NCBI GenBank assembly: GCA_963752595.1
Contig: CAVVYZ010000002.1
Span: forward strand, 160,001 to 224,000
Source: an uncultured delta proteobacterium
GTDB taxonomy: Bacteria; Desulfobacterota; Desulfomonilia; UBA1062
Reading direction: 5' to 3'
Length of the DNA: 64,000 nucleotides
The notes beneath the pieces were generated by a model. That model made no database searches, was not told where the DNA came from, and worked only from the letters and a program-made list of their open reading frames with translations. The position numbers were made by a program, and so were the translations under genes. Shown here piece after piece: positions 54,535 through 64,000 of the stretch; position 1 is the stretch's first letter, and each line of letters starts with the position of its first letter.

Positions 54535-55474
54535 TTATTTCTTGTTCATGAGCGTTTCAATGTTCCTCAGGATCTCCTCCTGCCCGTAGTTCGGCAGGGT
54601 GAATACATAGGGGCTTCCGGAAGAGGTTGCCGGGGTTTTGTCCCCCTGCTTTGCATGGAGGGAGAGGGTATACTCTTTTACCCCGGCGAGCGTTACCGTT
54701 GTTTCCGGCGCGCCCAAGCTCTCCCTGGCCGGGTCTTCGAGGTATCCACCGCACTCGAGCCTGCTCAGAGAGGAGAGCAGGGTATCAACATCGGCTTTCG
54801 CAGCCTCGCGACCGGAATCATCCGCCCACAGGGTCTGCTTGGCCGGCGCTGCTGCATTCGGCTTTCCTGCCTCTTCCGCCTTTTCCCGGCGGGTGAGTGT
54901 GAGGGGCTTGCCGCCTTTGACGATGCCGATCTTCTTGATCTCATCGGCAGGGAATGCCAGGACCTGCCTGTTTCTCAGCTCGTTGATCCCGAGCTGGAAA
55001 TCCTCCCGGAAGTTATCTTTTGCCTGGTAGACCTTTGCATCCCCCGGGAGCATCACAAAGGTGTGGCGTGATGAAGGGGCGACCTTGCCCACATCGAAGG
55101 AGCGGCTCATGGAGGTGCCCGCAAAAGCCTTTACCGTGATCTTTTCTTCGCTGCTCAAGTCATAGCGGATGTAGTTCTTTGACTCGGACACCAGATCGGT
55201 AAGCGTAAGACCGCCGATATCTTTGAGCATCTTCTCGACTTTTACCGTGTCCGCCGGGTACCCCTTGGGATCGATATACCAGGCATTGTCTTTTTTGCTC
55301 ACCGATATGATCAGGCCTTTCCGGGCGATCTCGATCCTGGATAATCTTCTTGGTATCGACCTCCCCCGGCTGCGGGACCCGGTAATGGACCTGGTCGGTG
55401 CGCTTGAAGTACAGATAAGCCCCGAGCGCCAGGATGAGAACGATCAGGATGATGTATTCTTTCTTGTTCTTCAT
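54535..55474 (-). CDS. DUF4340-like protein; frameshift near 55335
   Basis: N-terminal TM anchor in one frame, body in the next; last gene of the Gld-like ABC cluster. Confidence 0.75.
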
Positions 55475-57654
55475 GCTGTCCCCCTCTTGCTGAACATGAG
55501 CTCGATGCGCTTCTTCCGGTAACGCCTTCTCGCCCAGACCATGAGGCCGAAGCCCACGACCAGGGAAGGAACAACGGCAATGTTGAATGTCTTGATGAAC
55601 ACCTTGGTCCGTATCTGGATGTCTTCCAGCGGGTTGATGGTCAGCGTCTTGCTTCTCATCAGGGAGATGTCCATACGGTCGTTGAGCACATCGATCATGT
55701 TCATGATGAACGTGGAATTGGGGCTCTGGCCCTCGCCGTCAAGCAGGTTGTTCGTGAGCATATGGGACGAGCCGATAAGGAATATCTTTCCCGGCTTCGT
55801 CGATGCGGGAAGGAATGCGCCGGTCTGCTCGATCTTTGAAAGCTCGGCATTGGGTGCAGGCATATCCTTCGATTCTCCGCCGACTTTCTGCTCTTCGGGG
55901 GCTGCCAGTTTTTCCGGGATCGGCTTGCCGGTAAAATAGCTCTTGAAATCGCCTTCCAGCAGATATGCCAGAGGCTTGCTCTGCATCCGGTCCTCGGAAG
56001 GAGGCCGTATCTGCATGGGGTTGAGCACGATGTTGTCGCGCATCTCCCAGCCCCTGTCCGAAGAAGAGAAGAGCTTTTGCGCTTTGATTTTGTTCTCGGC
56101 CATACGCTTTTCATCAACTTCGAGGGGCGACATGGCAAGGGTGATCATGCTCTTGATGTTCTTCATGTATTCGAGCTTATCGTTGATGTATTTGCCCTCG
56201 ATGATGGGCGCGAAGTAAACGTCCTGCTGGCCGCCGCCGTACTCGACAGGCACCCGCTGCTTGTAGCACTTCTCATCGAGAACGATTGCGCTCCCGACCT
56301 TCACCCCGTAGCTGTCAAGCAGCTTTTCCAGGCCGGTGTTGACCGGGACAAACTGGGACTGCGCATACGGGCTGCCGGGCCGGCCTAACTGGACCTCCTG
56401 GAACTTATCCAGGAACAGGGCCAGATTGGTTCCCTGCATGAGCGCCTGGTCGATCTGGAAGAGCTCATAGTCGGTGAAATTCTGTGTGGGGCTTGCAATG
56501 ACAAGGCACCTGAGGCTTTTGGGTATGCCGGTTTCGCCTAAGTTTACTTTTTTGAGGGAATAATTCTGGGACACGAGCTGCGAGAAATTGGTCAGGGGCT
56601 CTCTGGCTGCAGATCCCGGCATGGCATACGTCTGCAGCGTGCCGTGGTCATCGAGATAGCCGATGCTCTCGTTGATGCCGATGAGCGTCTCGATGGTCTG
56701 CGAGATCGTTTCTTCGAGCTCGTCGGGCTTGATGAGATTGTACCGCGTACCGAACAGGGGCAGGCGGTACACCTGGACCATCGGGAGCACGGACGTGCTT
56801 TCTCCGTACTGAATGATCATGCCGATGATGCCTTCTCCCGCCTTGACATCCGTGCCGTCGAGATTCGGCCACTTGAAGTGTATGAGGTTGTACGACTTCA
56901 CCAGCGCTTCGAGCTCGGCCTGGTTGCCGGGCTCGGAAGAAGAATACATAAGCCGGTTGTACATCTTTTTGTTGAGGTTCTCCACGATGAGCTTGACCGC
57001 GCTTGTGAGCTGCGGCATGTCTTTCAGCCCCATGTAGGGAGCCACGTCGTTGAGTGAAGGGGAGTAGTAGAACTTCACGCTCACGGGCTTGTCGAGCTTG
57101 AGCAGCGCGCTGATCTTGTTGTTGAGCTTCATGATGGAGGTGGTGATCTTGTATTCGATGCCGTCGGTGGACGTGATGGTGGGGATCCTTTCCATCATGT
57201 CTCCGTGGAGGATCACGAGGCCCATGTAGGCCTTCTTGAACTTCACCTCGTCCTTCTCGATAGCCTGGATCTGGACAGGGTAGAGCCCGTAGTCCTGAGC
57301 CATCTTGCGGTTTTCCGTGCTCTCCTCGTTGCCGCCTTCGTCTTCGGGCGTCACGTCATAGAACCGGTAGTTGAAGTTCTTGCCGCCGTAGAGGGCATAC
57401 TCGCCGAGCACGTCCTTGAGGTAGCGCTCCACCGTGTTGTAGGGCGCAGGCAGGTTCTTGGTGAAGAACACGTTGATGGTCAGGGGCTCGGACAGGGTGT
57501 GGACAACCTCCTTGCTCACCTTCGAAAGCGAGTAGACCTTGTTTCCGGTGAGGTCGATGCGGAAGAAGAGGGAAAGCCCCACGATATTGATGAGCACGAG
57601 GACGACGAAATATATGGCGAATTTCGCATATCGGGATGTGTGCTTTGCAGTCAT
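55471..57654 (-). CDS. GldG-like ABC transporter auxiliary component
   Basis: RIDLT.NK.YSLS, EY.IT..I, IDQ.LM.G; TM helices at both ends. Confidence 0.88.
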   Translation of the reverse strand: MTAKHTSRYAKFAIYFVVLVLINIVGLSLFFRIDLTGNKVYSLSKVSKEVVHTLSEPLTINVFFTKNLPAPYNTVERYLKDVLGEYALYGGKNFNYRFYDVTPEDEGGNEESTENRKMAQDYGLYPVQIQAIEKDEVKFKKAYMGLVILHGDMMERIPTITSTDGIEYKITTSIMKLNNKISALLKLDKPVSVKFYYSPSLNDVAPYMGLKDMPQLTSAVKLIVENLNKKMYNRLMYSSSEPGNQAELEALVKSYNLIHFKWPNLDGTDVKAGEGIIGMIIQYGESTSVLPMVQVYRLPLFGTRYNLIKPDELEETISQTIETLIGINESIGYLDDHGTLQTYAMPGSAAREPLTNFSQLVSQNYSLKKVNLGETGIPKSLRCLVIASPTQNFTDYELFQIDQALMQGTNLALFLDKFQEVQLGRPGSPYAQSQFVPVNTGLEKLLDSYGVKVGSAIVLDEKCYKQRVPVEYGGGQQDVYFAPIIEGKYINDKLEYMKNIKSMITLAMSPLEVDEKRMAENKIKAQKLFSSSDRGWEMRDNIVLNPMQIRPPSEDRMQSKPLAYLLEGDFKSYFTGKPIPEKLAAPEEQKVGGESKDMPAPNAELSKIEQTGAFLPASTKPGKIFLIGSSHMLTNNLLDGEGQSPNSTFIMNMIDVLNDRMDISLMRSKTLTINPLEDIQIRTKVFIKTFNIAVVPSLVVGFGLMVWARRRYRKKRIELMFSKRGTA

Positions 57655-57664
57655 GGCTGTCTCC

Positions 57665-58369
57665 TTATCTCTTTGTCTGCATGACCAGGTGTGCGCCGTA
57701 GAGGGACACGAAGATCACACTGGCAAAATAGAGCAGGTCGCGCGAGTCGATGATGCCCTTCGAGATGTTCTCGAAATGGGAGCTCGCGGCGAGGTAGGTG
57801 AAGGCCTCGACGATCCGGTTGGGAAAGAAGAAGACCATCCTGTCGAAGAGCGTGAGCGTAAAGCAGATGATCATGCCCACGATGCATGCCACGATCTGGT
57901 TGCGGGTGAGCGCCGAGGCGAACACGCCGACAGCGCTGAATGCAGCGCCGAGGAGCACCGCGCCCAGGTAGCCGCCGATCACCGGGCCCCAGTCGAGGTC
58001 GCCGATGAAGGTTATGCTCAAGGCATAGGCGAGGGTGGGGACGAGCATGATGGCGGCAAAGGCAGCGCCTGCCAGAAATTTGCCGACGATCACGTCATTG
58101 AGCCTCACCGGAAGCGTGAGCAGCATCTCGTAGCTGCCGGTGTGGAGCTCTTCGGCAAAGAGCCGCATGGTCACCGCCGGGATTACGAGGGCAAAGGTCA
58201 GCGGCAGCAGGTTGAAGAAGCTTCTCAAGTTCGCCTCGGAAAAGATGAAGAATGTGGCGAAGAAGAACCACCCGGTGACGAGCAGAAAGATGCAGATCAC
58301 GATATAGCCGATGGGAGAGATGAAATAATCCCGTATTTCCTTTTTAAAGATATTCAGAACCTGGGGCAT
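57665..58369 (-). CDS. GldF-like ABC transporter permease
   Basis: KKE..YF.SPIGY, TMRLFAEE..GSYEMLLTLP, T.NQIVA. Confidence 0.9.
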   Translation of the reverse strand: MPQVLNIFKKEIRDYFISPIGYIVICIFLLVTGWFFFATFFIFSEANLRSFFNLLPLTFALVIPAVTMRLFAEELHTGSYEMLLTLPVRLNDVIVGKFLAGAAFAAIMLVPTLAYALSITFIGDLDWGPVIGGYLGAVLLGAAFSAVGVFASALTRNQIVACIVGMIICFTLTLFDRMVFFFPNRIVEAFTYLAASSHFENISKGIIDSRDLLYFASVIFVSLYGAHLVMQTKR

Positions 58370-58373
58370 GGTT

Positions 58374-59312
58374 TTAAGCCTCCTTTGTGAGGTCGCGGAA
58401 GATGTTCTCAAGAGACTTGACCTCCTGGGTGAACTCCACGAGGACCCAGTCCGTATCCTTGACGCAGGCAAAGATCCTTTCCTGCAGATCGTCAGCACTG
58501 TCGGACACGATCTTGAGCCGCAGCTTGTCGGGCTCGGTTGCTTCGAGATTCTCGACCTTGCTCACGCCCTCGATCGCGCCGAGCTTTCTCAGGGCCGTAT
58601 CAAGGTCTGCCTTGAGCAGGGTGATGTTGATGATCTTCTCTTCGCCGTGGCTCTTCCTGAGGGATTCGGTGCTGCCGTCTGCAACGATCCTGCCCTTGTC
58701 GAGGATCACGATGCGGTCGCAGGTGGCCTCGGCCTCGCTCAGGATGTGGGTGGAGAGGATGATGGTCTTTTCCTTGCCGAAGCTGCGGATGATGTCCCTG
58801 ATCTCCACGATCTGGTTCGGGTCGAGGCCCGAGGTCGGCTCGTCGAGGATGAGGATTTCCGGGTCTTCCATCATGGCGTGCGCCAGGCCGACCCGCTGCT
58901 TGAGGCCTTTCGAGAGCTCGCCGATGGGCTTGTGCATGATGCCGCCCAGGCCGCAGAGATCGGCCAGCTCGTGGATGCGCCCTATCTTCCTCTTGCTGTC
59001 CAGGCCCCGGATTTCCCCGATATAATCGAGGTAGTCATAGACCAGCATGCCGTGATACAGCGGGGCGGATTCGGGAAGGTAGCCGATGAGCTTCTTGATA
59101 TCGAGCAGGTTGTCATCGATGGAATAGTCATTGATCCGGATGATGCCGGACGTCGGCTCGAGGTAGCCCGTGAGCATCCGAAGCGTCGTTGTCTTGCCTG
59201 CGCCGTTGGGCCCCAAGAGCCCTGTGATCTCCCCCTTGGAAACATCGAGGTTGATCTGATCCACAGCACAGAAATCGCCGTAATACTTGGTCAGCTTTTC
59301 CACATGGATCAT
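58374..59312 (-). CDS. GldA-like ABC transporter ATP-binding protein
   Basis: GPNGAGKTT, LSKG.KQRVGLA, ILDEPTSGLDP. Confidence 0.95.
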   Translation of the reverse strand: MIHVEKLTKYYGDFCAVDQINLDVSKGEITGLLGPNGAGKTTTLRMLTGYLEPTSGIIRINDYSIDDNLLDIKKLIGYLPESAPLYHGMLVYDYLDYIGEIRGLDSKRKIGRIHELADLCGLGGIMHKPIGELSKGLKQRVGLAHAMMEDPEILILDEPTSGLDPNQIVEIRDIIRSFGKEKTIILSTHILSEAEATCDRIVILDKGRIVADGSTESLRKSHGEEKIINITLLKADLDTALRKLGAIEGVSKVENLEATEPDKLRLKIVSDSADDLQERIFACVKDTDWVLVEFTQEVKSLENIFRDLTKEA

Positions 59313-59780
59313 CGAAGTCCTCCTTATATGTTAACCCCTCAAGATGCGTATATGCGGTATTGAACTTTGCCCTGATAACAAAACCAGGTGAACTGGGGCT
59401 ATGATAAAGAAAATTTCACTGGGTTTGTCAAGCCCTGATAGACTACATTCGTCTTCTTTTCAAGGCCGGAAAAGCTCTTTGCCTGCAACCCCGGATGAAT
59501 ATACAAGGAATTCATATACCGGATTCAAAAGGGCTGCACACCGGGAAATTTCCATAAGCAGCATTTATAATTGCTGTAATTTCTTGACATAAAAGAAACG
59601 ATTGGACATAATGCAATGGAATACATCATGAATTGCATCAATTGAAATGGGGGCTGTTCTCTTCTCGAAACATTTCTTCACCTGTCCGGGACGGAGTCTG
59701 CCGTTATTATCCCGCCCGGTTTCAATCCTCACCGGCAGGGGAATAGATGGTGAATGGAGCTTTTTCTTGAATCGATGCAT

Positions 59781-60141
59781 TCATAAATGGTCCAGAGGGC
59801 TTGTGAGTTTCGCAAGGTCTTTCTGCATCACATGGGTATAAATTTCATATACAAGGCTTCTTTCGAAATCGAGGTCCTGGACCTGGAGGCGGATACACTC
59901 CATGAGTCTGAGCCCGCATCCATAGAACATTAAGGTGACTTAAAAAGGCATCGATATGTATTTTCCCCATATTCAAAGGGTGGGTTTTACTCCCATGAAA
60001 TTTGATGTACCGAAGGACCCACTCGCAGTAAGTCTGTTCGGTGCGATAGGCATAATGATGGTAACGCAGCACCTGGCGCACCTGATCCATCAATTTCAAT
60101 TTAGGATCGGGGATAAACTTCTTAATGCCATTATTTTCCAT
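59781..60141 (-). pseudogene. intI: Integron integrase relic with two internal deletions
   Basis: KLMDQVR..LR..HY..RTE.TY..W N-terminus, then in the +1 frame FYGCGLRLMECIRL.VQDLDF fused directly to EIYTHV..SPLD.L*. Confidence 0.9.
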
Positions 60142-60247
60142 GCTACCTATAAATTAACCGGCATACATGGAAAATACAATGTGCCGTTTTCCATGTTTTA
60201 TCATTGAATATGAGTTTAGATGGAAAATAATCCTTTTTATAAAGGCA

Positions 60248-60284
60248 ATAGGTGGGAAATTTCCATCTATTGAGACTGTTCGGC
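60248..60284 (+). other. Candidate attI region
   Basis: GTTCGGC core-like site at 60278 between the divergent intI and the cassette ORF, preceded by an imperfect palindrome. Confidence 0.45.
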
Positions 60285-60298
60285 AAAGCAGCTGAATC

Positions 60299-62458
60299 AT
60301 GAGCTGGATATGAAGATTTCTCCATCGAAAGAAACGGGATGTACCCAAAGAAGACGGTGAATTGAAGCCGATTGCGGTCCCGGTTCGCAAAAGCAACGTA
60401 AGCATAGCTGCAGATAATCCAATCCAAAATCCTGAAGAAGATGCTCTAGGTCGAACCAGATCTGCCCAATCTTTCGCAAAGCAGGTCTTGTCGCTTGATT
60501 CAACAGAAGGTTTTGTCGTCGGCGTGTTGGGACCATGGGGTTCAGGAAAAACATCTTTTATCAACCTTGCTAGCGGGTACTTAAAGGACTACGGCGTCAC
60601 GCTACTAGATTTCAACCCTTGGATGTTCAGCGGAGCGGAGCAACTTATCGAAGCATTCTTCGTGGAACTCTCCGCGCAACTGAAGGTAAACCAAGATTTC
60701 GCGAAATTGGTAAGCTCCTAGAGGAATATGGCGAGAGTTTCTCTGGCTTGGGGTGGTTGCCTCTTGTCGGACCATGGGTTGAACGTGGCCAAGCCGCTAC
60801 AAAGGTTCTTGCTAAACTCCTTCAGCGTAAAAGGAAGGAATACGTGCTCGTCGGTCAAAAATTCACAAAGCTCTTGCATCCTTTGATAAGCCCATCGTTG
60901 TAATTCTTGATGATATTGATCGTTTAACATCTGTAGAAATCAGAGATGTCTTTAAACTCGTTCGGCTAACAGCAAACTTCCCTAACGTCATTTACCTTTT
61001 GGCTTTCGATCGGATTCGCGTCGAAGAGGCACTTAGGGAGCAAGGATTTCCGGGTCGTGACTCCTAGAGAAAATTCTGCAGATTGGGGTTGATCTTCCGG
61101 CAGTGTCTGCAGATGTATTGAACTCTCAAATCTTCAAGTCGATAGATGCTTCACTTGCTACCATTGAGAATCCAGGGCAGTTTGACCAGAATATTTGGCC
61201 TGATGTATTTATGGAGGTTATTCGGCCACTAATTCGGAACATACGAGATGTACGTCGTTATGTGGCCGCCATCCACGGCACCGTTCGGGATTTGGGTGGA
61301 CAAGTGGCTCTTGTGGATGTGCTAGCACTCGAAGCTATCCGTGTCTTCCTACCTGACGTCTTCAGTAGTATCTATAGAGCAGTGGATGGCCTTACTAGAA
61401 CCTCGGAAGGCTATGGAGGGTCATGACGACCCTCAGCATCTCAAACAACAGATTGACGGATTGATTAATGTGGCTGGCGAGCGTGGGGAGATTGTTCACT
61501 CGCTTATTCAGAGACTGTTTCCGGAGTTCAACGGCACATCGGCGGATCTCACTACAGTGGTGATTTGAAGAACCGTTGGCTTAGGGAGCGACGTATAGCC
61601 CATGAAGAAGTGCTTCGTCTTTATTTGGAGCGCGTTGTTGGAGAACGTCTCCAGGCCTTTATGGACGCAGAGAAGGCTTGGGAAAAGATGACAGATCGCG
61701 ATGCCCTTGAAAGTTATCTACGCTCGCTGGAACCTGAACGCCTGCAGGATGTTATTTCGTCACTCGAAACTTACGAGGATCAGTTCGGGCCTGAGCATGT
61801 GGTTCCAGCAACTGTAGTCCTGCTAAATATGTTGCCTGTTCTACCAGAACGACAGCTCGGATTTCTCGACTTAGATACCAGACTTGTCGTCGGAAGGGTG
61901 GTCTACAGGCTCATCCGCGCGATCAAGGACCCTCAAGCAGTAGAGTCTGCGGTGCGAGAGATCCTACCTCAAGTTCAGTCGCTATCCTCACAACTAGAAC
62001 TAATCACTGACGTTGGTTACCGAGAAGGGGCGGGTCACAAACTCGTGTCGGAATCCGCGGCAAGGACGTTAGAGAAGGAATGGCGAGCTAGAGTTCGTGC
62101 AGCCAGTGAAGACACGCTTGCGGGTGAAAAGGAACTCCTGAGAACCTTGATCGTCACCAAGAAAGAGGCTGAACCTGACGAACCTGATCTTGCGGTTCCC
62201 GAATCTCCCCGCGTGACATACGCACTACTGCGGTCAGCGAGGAGCGAAGTGCGGAGTCAGCCAATGGGAAGTCGGGCTGTACGCCGGTCTCCTCGACTAG
62301 CGTGGAATGTGCTAGTTGAGCTATATGGTGACGAAGCGCTCTTACGTCAGTGTATCGAGAAATTGAAGTCTTCACAGCCCGACGAAGCGTGTGATTTATT
62401 ACAGCTTGTCGAGAAGTACCTTAGCGGCTGGCGTCCCAGTGACTTCGGTGATGAATGA
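60299..62458 (+). pseudogene. KAP family P-loop NTPase gene cassette, disrupted by an early stop and several frameshifts
   Basis: DALGR, GPWGSGKTS, FNPWMFS, VILDDIDRL, YLLAFD, LEKI.Q and NIRDVRRY across frames; in-frame TGA at 60311. Confidence 0.88.
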
Positions 62459-62472
62459 TATGTGTCAGAGTT

Positions 62473-62479
62473 ACCTAAC
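62473..62479 (+). other. R'' box of an interrupted attC site
   Basis: ACCTAAC (RYYYAAC) 15 nt after the cassette stop codon; rest of the site replaced by the IS end. Confidence 0.6.
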
Positions 62480-62519
62480 ACTTATAAGGCCTCCTCTTGT
62501 CAATAGATAAAACTTCCCC

Positions 62520-63050
62520 GAGACGAAAACGTTTTTCATTTTTCGTCTGCATGTGTGTCTATTGGCAAGACACTTCTGAACGGTGAGAGTTTCTTTTTTC
62601 CGTTCAACCATATCGCTCTTTGTCGGCTGCTCTGGCTTTGGTTTCATCAAGGGGTGCCAGGGAAATCAAATCCTGCACCAAACACTTATTGAGGTTCTTT
62701 TCATCATTCTTGCAAGCGGGTGGTTGCTCCCTCTACGAGAAGAATGCGACCTAGAAACAATGCTGTTCTCCCTCGTGCCGTCCCAGTCAAAAGCCGGGGT
62801 GTTGTTCTCCCCAGTTAGGCTGCGGGCTCGGGTAAGGGGCAGAACCTGACCAACAAGAGCTTGTATTGTTATGAAGGAGCGAGACGGATCTCCAATCAAA
62901 AGCAGTTGGCTGCCGGGTATCAATCGGGCACATCCTTTTTCCAGCACTCTTATGGTGCAAGGATATTCTATTCCTTTCCTGATCAAGGCGAATGCGTGCT
63001 CCATTCCCATATGGCTCCAGTTAGGCGTCGGACTGATCCGTCTCCTCCAA
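62520..63050 (-). ncRNA. Putative bridge/seek RNA of the IS110 element
   Basis: Multiple stems, a duplicated GCCTAACTGG...GCTTTTGAYTGG module, and a loop matching the insertion junction. Confidence 0.6.
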
Positions 63051-63054
63051 TCTT

Positions 63055-64000
63055 TCAGTGGCTCAGGAATTTGTCCTGATCGAAAGCCACCTTGTTTTTC
63101 AGCATGTAATAGGCAGCTCTTCCGAGCTTGTGGGCCAGGATCGAGAGCGCTTTTCCTTTTCCGTGTTTCTGGGCAAGCCGGTCGAGGTATTTCTTCGCGG
63201 GCTCATTGCCCTTGATGAAGAGCACCGATGCTTCACTGAAAGCCCACTTCAGGTGAGCATTGCCGATCTTCTTGCCGCCGGTTCCATAGCTTTTGCCATT
63301 GGATTCTTTTTTGCATTTCACCAGACGGGCATATGAGGCAAAGTCCTGGACGGTTTCGAATCGATCGATGGTCTCTATTTCATAGAGCATGACTAGGGCG
63401 AGGATTCTGCCCACTCCCGGAATGGTTTGCAGGAGAGTGATAGGAAAGGGCGTCGTGTCCATTGGCGGTCTTGATGATCTCCCGCTCAAGCGGGATGAGG
63501 ATGCGGTCATAGGCTTCGATCATGGCGAGATCGACTTCCATGTTCTTCCTCACACTGGGATCGTCGAATCGCTCTGCAACGCCGCTTCTGTTCTGTGGCT
63601 TGGCGATGCGGCCGAGAGGATCCGGCAGGTTGTACTGGCTGTTGGTGTTCTGGATATGGGCAAAGAGCTCTGCCCTCTTCCTCACCAGATGATTCCGCCG
63701 CCTGAGAAGATCCCTGGTGGCGCGCATCTTTGCCGGGTAGACATATGCCTGGGGCAGCATGCCGCCCCTGAGCAGCACGGCGATCTTATGGGAGTCGATC
63801 TTGTCGTTCTTGCTCTTGCCGCCATGGATCGCTTTCATATAGAGCGCATGCCCCAGGACAAAGGGAATTCCCTCCTGCGCGCACAGGTCGGCCACCCAGT
63901 ACCAGGTGAACATGCACTCCGCAGCCACCACGATGTCCTCCCGAAAGGGAGCGATGAGCTCGAGAAAAGCTCGGGATCCGTATTCAGGTTCCGGTGAGCC
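63055..64000 (-). CDS. IS110 family transposase (5' partial; frameshifts near 63450 and 63968)
   Basis: AECMFTWYW, KNDKIDS, L.TIPGVG, FASYARL...ESNGK, GNAHLKWAF. Confidence 0.93.

Follow-up and report, generated by a model that had tools for sequence, protein, structure and literature searches.

In the bridge RNAs characterised so far, a single target loop is combined with a single donor loop. There is no agreement on how the elements that encode them exit a site: excision is weak, regeneration of the target often fails and target-loop-only RNAs are plentiful. For IS621 and ISCro4 (IS622), the available parts of the published descriptions report guide loops whose two halves flank a dinucleotide core, a donor loop that matches the junction of the element itself, handshake bases that match the partner after exchange and a recombinase with DEDD and Tnp_20 domains (PMC11208160; bioRxiv 2025.05.14.653916; PMC13626964); in IS621, handshake pairing promotes insertion and suppresses excision (PMC13626964, available text). 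In IS1111-type elements, e.g. ISEc11 and ISPa11, the seekRNA or bridge RNA is located in the 3' non-coding end, the inverted repeats are sub-terminal, the top-strand complement lies 5' of the bottom-strand match, and circle formation requires target flanks on both sides (PMC11187229, in the parts available), while a multi-loop donor domain is described for IS1111 orthologues in the accessible text of Durrant et al. (PMC11208160). Finally, direct transfer of CazIS110-1 is described as a cooperation between a target-loop-only RNA and a full bridge RNA (Sun et al., bioRxiv 2025.10.25.684509, available text).

We report that the window, i.e. the whole 64,000-nt stretch of DNA that was analysed, includes the 3' non-coding end of an insertion sequence identified from its sequence as an ISGsu4-group member of the IS110 family, which lies in antisense orientation in the R'' box of an attC site. 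This end is predicted to encode a bridge RNA in which two loops match the target and one matches the donor, an arrangement conserved in distant relatives. The main features of the element are as follows:

63055..64000 and on to approximately 64098 past the window, minus strand: IS110-family (DEDD) transposase gene of the ISGsu4 group, frameshifted near 63975 and 63439 when compared with the intact C20 paralogues
62481..63054, minus strand: 3' non-coding end with the predicted three-loop guide RNA
62485..62503, minus strand: right sub-terminal inverted repeat (62496-62485) and TTGACA (62503-62498), a predicted -35 box
62473..62480, plus strand: attC R'' box ACCTAAC (62473-62479) and the TG core of the insertion (62480-62479, minus strand); the remaining attC lies beyond the element

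The distance from the end of the gene to the right end of the element is 577 nt. The genome has four copies of the element: that of the window, two intact copies on contig C20 (≈88% identical) and one on contig C1, which has lost both ends. The Pfam domains PF01548 and PF02371 (DEDD RuvC-like and Tnp_20 recombinase) are present on the intact 88%-identical paralogue, and the acidic residues of the transposase are invariant across the alignment (A1). With two frameshifts in its own gene, the window copy would depend on transposase supplied in trans, e.g. by the C20 copies, in which the end sequences read by the guides are the same as in the window copy. A one-base insertion at ≈63439 is found at the same place of the transposase in the window and C1 copies, but with different bases; common history, a hotspot or an assembly error are the options. 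Sub-terminal inverted repeats and a TG core are present at the element ends, with a 12/13 repeat match in the window copy. TTGACA is the predicted -35 box of a promoter that might form on circularisation; for the linear form of the element no promoter was found.

The right junction lies 15 nt past a KAP-NTPase gene on the plus strand, and the cassette ORFs on the far side of the element are also on the plus strand, so that the minus-strand element, located at G|TT of R'', runs antisense to the array. The transposases on C20 are likewise opposed to the cassette ORFs. The KAP-family P-loop NTPase cassette gene (60362-62458, plus strand) is itself split into several frames, with PF07693 on the first piece, and the window intI (59845-60141, minus strand) is a fragment of 98 codons comprising the N-terminal SAM-like domain only. 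A full-length IntI ORF of 372 codons (G000:C20:132733-133851) adjoins a large cassette array.

For the comparative analysis, loci were taken from GTDB (80 of 275 kept), plasmids (14), genome searches and metagenomes (80 of 595 kept), which gave 284 loci with a transposase match. Both ends were called in 150 of these from the inverted repeat and TTGAC, with the guides unused, and after removal of false calls (L032, L034, L135, L140 and L198) and merging of duplicates 114 sites were kept: 58 of an attC clade, 55 of a sister clade and L104 (counts out of 113 refer to the two clades without L104). The transposases of the attC clade are 51-100% and those of the sister clade 30-36% identical to the paralogue against which members were scored, and the two clades are ≈33% identical in protein (≈65% divergence). 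Flank tests used sites with ≥8 nt on each side, minus L075 and L215 (53 attC-clade and 47 sister-clade sites). Permutation tests were based on 40 sister-clade and 24 attC-clade clusters, and kinship was controlled for by comparing own with swapped matches in disjoint nearest pairs (22 sister-clade and 21 attC-clade pairs). A strict attC filter was passed by 18 of the 53 reconstructed sites; many of the others have a good L-box and weak R-box pairing. The viral contigs searched yielded no relative of the element, and the sequencing runs searched for it comprised DNA runs with a small share only and no listed RNA run.

The nearest ISfinder names, assigned by eye, are ISGsu4, ISGsu5, ISMahy12, ISShfr7 and ISShwo5 (available supplements of PMC11208160 and PMC11187229); transposase motifs match by eye, the comparison being of proteins only, and no description of an RNA for these five was found in the literature searched. 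The GenBank annotation calls one sister-clade member 'ISGsu4 family'. As in the IS1111-type elements, the inverted repeats are sub-terminal, the RNA is placed in a long 3' non-coding end and the top-strand complement stands 5' of the bottom-strand match (PMC11187229, available parts); the domain formed here by loops B and C is reminiscent of the multi-loop donor domain of the IS1111 orthologues (Durrant et al., PMC11208160, same proviso). However, the non-coding ends are 363-679 nt long among our members, compared with ≈260-275 nt in IS1111-type elements (Supplementary Table 1 of PMC11187229, by eye), and ISEc11 has, by eye, one target match pair, no second target loop being described in the available parts of PMC11187229 and PMC11208160. 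Moreover, the ISfinder relatives are ≈15-23% identical to IS1111-clade members in the published matrix (PMC11187229, as available), and the ISGsu4 group is probably a separate deep branch from the IS1111 clade.

Antisense insertion near the 5' end of attC is also known from the IS1111-attC group, i.e. ISKpn4, ISPst6, ISPa21 and ISPa25 (PMC3001079, available text). The transposase lineage of that group appears unrelated: in the Siddiquee matrix (PMC11187229) the identity to ISKpn4 and ISPst6 is 16.8% for ISShfr7, the relative grouped with ISGsu4 through which the comparison was made. Moreover, ISKpn4 enters 7 nt before TT (PMC13604230, available text) whereas the window element is at G|TT of R''. 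Neither the insertion base (7 nt apart) nor monophyly (≈17% identity for the group's relatives) is thus shared with ISKpn4/ISPst6, and we infer from these sequences that attC targeting by the two lineages is convergent. The ISGsu4 group would then target attC by a route of its own, which leads to the R'' box.

All motifs listed in a first-pass annotation of the window were reproduced on the minus strand. Specifically, the stem of module A (63044-63035/62890-62881) has 10/10 pairs, and the same motif pair is present in modules A and B (GCCTAACTGG at 63026-63017 and 62820-62811; GCTTTTGATTGG at 62903-62892 and GCTTTTGACTGG at 62794-62783). A third hairpin carries ATAAGTGTTTGGT (62689-62677), a 12/13 match to the junction ATAAGTGTTAGGT (62485-62473). 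The architecture of the predicted RNA is as follows:

62876..63048, minus strand: module A, a free-standing hairpin with the predicted main target-binding loop; outer stem 63048-63035/62890-62876
63020..63028, minus strand: 5' guide of A, ACGCCTAAC, complementary to the core G and the right target flank
62895..62905, minus strand: 3' guide of A, CTGCTTT, with core TG (62898-62897) and handshake AT (62896-62895)
62770..62838, minus strand: module B, the second target-type loop, with 5' guide (62823-62814), 3' guide (62795-62790) and core TG (62789-62788)
62839..62850, minus strand: 5' strand of helix P1, which closes the three-way junction of B and C
62665..62676, minus strand: 3' strand of helix P1
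62754..62762, minus strand: 5' donor guide of C, CATTGTTTC, a 7/9 match to the complement of the core G and the left end
62678..62689, minus strand: 3' donor guide of C, ATAAG (identical to the right end), with core TG, handshake TT and scaffold TGG

The three loops are kept in all 113 aligned insertion sites of both clades, on a common module scaffold (5' guide, TGG...CC(A), 3' guide, TG, two bases, TGG), and all three have the TG core in 113/113 sites (58 attC-clade and 55 sister-clade), where the anchors used for the TG-core and loop counts could shift by 1 nt; by eye L104 has the same three-module layout. Since the 5' flank of B pairs with the 3' flank of C (P1), B and C would form one three-way junction and A would be free upstream. 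In the stem previously drawn around module B, the outer part departs from the conserved pairing, in which 62850-62839 pairs with 62676-62665 and joins B to C. In the outer stem of A, two-sided changes were detected at 14/14 consensus pairs, each in at least one of 28 sequences, and an alignment-free comparison of own with swapped duplex energies gave p = 2e-4 in both clades for P1, the A stem and the B stem. RNAalifold applied to the B+C alignment recovered five pairs and missed P1, probably because the alignment is poorly registered there. Arm profiles found the five arms in order in at least 73/94 and at least 42/80 downstream regions; these counts are lower bounds because the A-stem profiles also miss training sequences.

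Comparing the loops with their flanks indicated that A and B follow targets while C follows the element ends, in agreement with the first-pass reading of two target-type loops and one donor loop. The sister clade targets sequences other than attC, with right flanks such as ACCCC, TCCCC, CTTCG, CCACG, ACTTTT, TCAACG and others. Had the motif shared by A and B been invariant there, it would have pointed to a scaffold; instead A and B switch sequence with the target and match it, and are therefore guides. In the sister-clade permutations, the 5' guide matched at 5.22 vs 3.61 of 6 positions for A and 4.17 vs 3.38 for B, and the 3' guide at 3.20 vs 1.65 of 4 for A and 2.75 vs 1.60 for B (p = 2e-4 throughout). 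The own match exceeded the swapped match in 20 of the 22 sister-clade nearest pairs for A (1 against) and in 17 for B (1 against, p = 1e-4). In the attC clade A also tracks well (12 vs 1 among the 21 nearest pairs); B tracked the left flank in the permutation (p = 0.0014), with no tracking by its 5' guide in the same clade (p = 0.39), and its attC-clade nearest pairs were split 8 vs 5 (p = 0.29). Pooling the nearest pairs of both clades gave 25 vs 6 for B (p = 4e-4). In the sister clade, the right flank is matched in excess by A over 8 nt, while the excess for B fades past the 4-5 core-proximal bases; B reads about four bases on either side of the core. Taken together, B is likely to pair with target-derived DNA at all.

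The two target-type loops are unequal. A is the better match to the target at 71 of 100 sites and B at nine (7/53 and 2/47), including both C20 insertions of the genome's own element. Their near-identity, pointed out earlier, holds in the window but is not a trait of the family, the 5' guides being identical over 7 nt in 5/58 and 4/55 sites. Where A mismatches its site, B equals A at 97 positions and the target at 49, which fits a common consensus target and also B merely shadowing A. Such shadowing would be expected if B served the donor domain as a structural arm, or were an ancestral target loop that has been retained, and bound a recombinase dimer without needing DNA pairing, its resemblance to the target being due to descent or refreshing from A. 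The poorer match of B and its lack of tracking among attC-clade neighbours point in the same direction. However, on the sister-clade tree B has followed several separate retargetings (e.g. CTTCG, CCACG, ACTTTT, TCCC and TCTC) while its scaffold and linker stayed distinct from those of A; moreover, A and B have identical 5' guides in only 9/113 sites, and B keeps the TG core throughout. We regard a structural role of this kind as somewhat unlikely.

Could A and B instead be alternative target loops that widen the range over degenerate repeated targets, i.e. attC or repeats starting with ACCCC? B often differs from A at +5 and +6, it is the better loop at the nine sites given above, and in L264 and L271, which are from one genome, the targets suit the 5' guides of B and A, respectively. 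Yet B did not complement A: it matched at 27 of the positions missed by A vs 32.4 expected from the B loops of other elements in one clade and at 22 vs 21.8 in the other, and it is without the insertion-favouring handshake (see below). Broadening of the target range, which had been suggested for the window, is thus an unlikely function.

A change of A alone is seen in L011, L012 and L013 (from one genome), L030 and L276, all of the attC clade, to CGAAAC, CCGAAC or CCCAAC; these changes match atypical right flanks and are natural retargeting in progress. The commonest sister-clade target (L106-L111 and L182-L262) is like CAAGACC TG ACCCC, and we take it to resemble the REP-like repeats near RAYT genes.

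It had also been proposed that A and B bind both R boxes of one attC, acting on cassettes and perhaps replacing a dead IntI. Both 5' guides are indeed complementary to GTTAGRY, which the two boxes offer on opposite strands. On the other hand, the other box has a CG core in 17/18 attC-like sites whereas all three loops have TG, the match of the B guides there is at the null level (p = 0.54 and 0.06), and the sister clade has the same architecture on targets that are not attC. We rejected this model on the core and match data and consider it very improbable. As to recombination of cassettes in place of IntI, no evidence was found; the window transposase is frameshifted and the genome has the full-length IntI ORF on C20.

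Loop C is identified as the donor loop by its match to the element ends. The final 5 nt of the right end are those of its 3' guide in 53/58 attC-clade and 52/55 sister-clade sites (105/113), and the left end is followed less closely by its 5' guide (p = 2e-4 and 0.02, respectively). The 12/13 match that had been taken to mean that the third loop reads the junction is accounted for by the 5-nt donor guide, the TG core and the two handshake bases (9 nt), followed by the TGG of the shared scaffold. With respect to the handshake, that of C corresponds to the first two target bases in 57/58 and 46/54 sites (103/112) and that of A to the first two left-end bases in 56/58 and 53/55 sites (109/113); in the window these are TT and AT, respectively. 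B has the donor handshake in 11/58 attC-clade and 2/55 sister-clade sites (13/113). In the window it has AC at this position, where the first base alone matches the left end, as does the first base of the slot in 56/58 attC-clade sites, and comparing the slot of B with the target gave no excess over the null (0.21 vs 0.21; 0.47 vs 0.42). In the sister clade the slot has become a variable linker of ≥6 nt in 52/55 sites, by a rough pattern count. The handshake pattern is like that of IS621 and IS622 but concerns the opposite strand, which agrees with IS1111-type RNAs having their guides in reversed order.

These results also bear on whether there is a functional RNA at all. Of 1000 sequences obtained by dinucleotide shuffling of the non-coding end, 15% had an exact 10-mer repeat and 25% a 12-mer repeat with at most one mismatch, and the folding of the whole region is not significant (z = -0.99). 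The repeats are therefore weak evidence alone, and such repeats, common by chance in one sequence, could be chance occurrences or conserved DNA binding sites. Against this stand the compensatory stems, the opposite-strand guide logic and the covariation of the A and C handshakes in the sister clade (p = 2e-4), which make an explanation without an RNA extremely unlikely; it is the conservation and covariation in homologues that raise the feature above chance. A search of positions 55000-64000 against Rfam (E up to 1) gave no match. Overall, the observations of the first-pass annotation are confirmed and its interpretation is partly supported.

The predicted RNA thus displays several hallmarks of IS110 bridge RNAs: recombinase domains (on the intact paralogue), a target loop that covaries with both flanks (A; B more weakly), a donor loop (C) and, for A and C but not for B, the handshake. 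Instead of exactly one target and one donor loop, it has two target-type loops in both clades. The two-half guides around a dinucleotide core, the donor loop matching the element's own junction, the handshake to the post-exchange partner and the DEDD and Tnp_20 recombinase are as in IS621/ISCro4; the differences from these elements, as far as the available descriptions cited above go, are the three loops instead of two, the location of the RNA downstream of the gene, the guide order, which is reversed relative to the gene, the placement of the donor loop within a three-way junction, and a target loop that is free of a handshake. No bridge RNA with two target loops was described in the literature searched, from which subscription papers were largely outside; the 86 RNA models of bioRxiv 2026.10.21.760802, available in part, could include one.

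The handshake effect in IS621, the flank requirement of IS1111-type circle formation and the RNA pair of CazIS110-1 lead us to favour a division of labour, in which A would pick and commit new sites and B, joined to C, would grip the target-derived flanks of the inserted copy; our confidence in this reading is evenly split. Each loop would bind a recombinase dimer, judging from the work on IS621 and CazIS110-1, A and C would bring a new attC and the circular donor into synapsis, and the exchange would be driven forward by the handshake bases of these two loops. As the same bases would oppose excision in the inserted copy, a short handshake-free target loop tethered to C might serve circle formation or direct transfer. 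The arrangement would then be a hard-wired form of the pair consisting of a target-loop-only RNA and a full bridge RNA (Sun et al., bioRxiv 2025.10.25.684509, available text). It is like the two-pathway model for CazIS110-1 in having a free target loop beside a target and donor bridge RNA; in that source the free loop is a truncated form of the bridge RNA itself, whereas the one described here is encoded separately and has both a guide sequence of its own and the sole target-side handshake. Counting against the division of labour, the tracking by B is weak in the attC clade alone, the handshake slot of B is not selected to match the target, as would be expected of an excision-favouring guide, and the handshake of C itself would still oppose excision.

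More tentatively, and with the balance somewhat against it, the RNA might split the directions of recombination: the free, long-reading and handshake-bearing loop would insert, the short handshake-free loop fused to the donor loop would excise or transfer from site to site, the target loop that is loaded would set the direction, and both loops would be reprogrammed together on a change of target. Two unequal target loops, with and without a handshake, kept across ≈65% protein divergence are a natural test of which loop is used for insertion, circle formation and direct transfer, and could provide a scaffold for programming each of the two directions separately.

Some members deviate from the general pattern. 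L071 and L078 keep both ends and have lost nearly all of the non-coding RNA region, and would thus depend on an RNA in trans. A short tandem duplication of the right-end tip is present in L107, L088, L215, L226 and L259, as an assembly artefact or through re-insertion. A small palindromic insert (around CCGACGA...CCCATTCTCG) is found in the non-coding ends of L029, L030, L033, L021, L027, L110 and L140, which are unrelated members of both clades, and is perhaps a miniature mobile element.

Described IIC-attC introns insert in the bottom strand, opposite to the cassettes. Just past the window (L002:4700-7340; G000:C2 ≈224200-226840) there is a group II intron with Rfam matches for D1-D4 and D5-6 and a reverse-transcriptase-like ORF of 440 codons. 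Its 5' part resembles two nested or tandem intron pieces, and similar intron-like sequence is present upstream of L020. The intron splits the attC site of the window and is positioned in the R' box of this attC, on the top strand and in the direction of the cassettes, so that, with the IS110-family element in R'', two different mobile elements are present at both R boxes of one attC.
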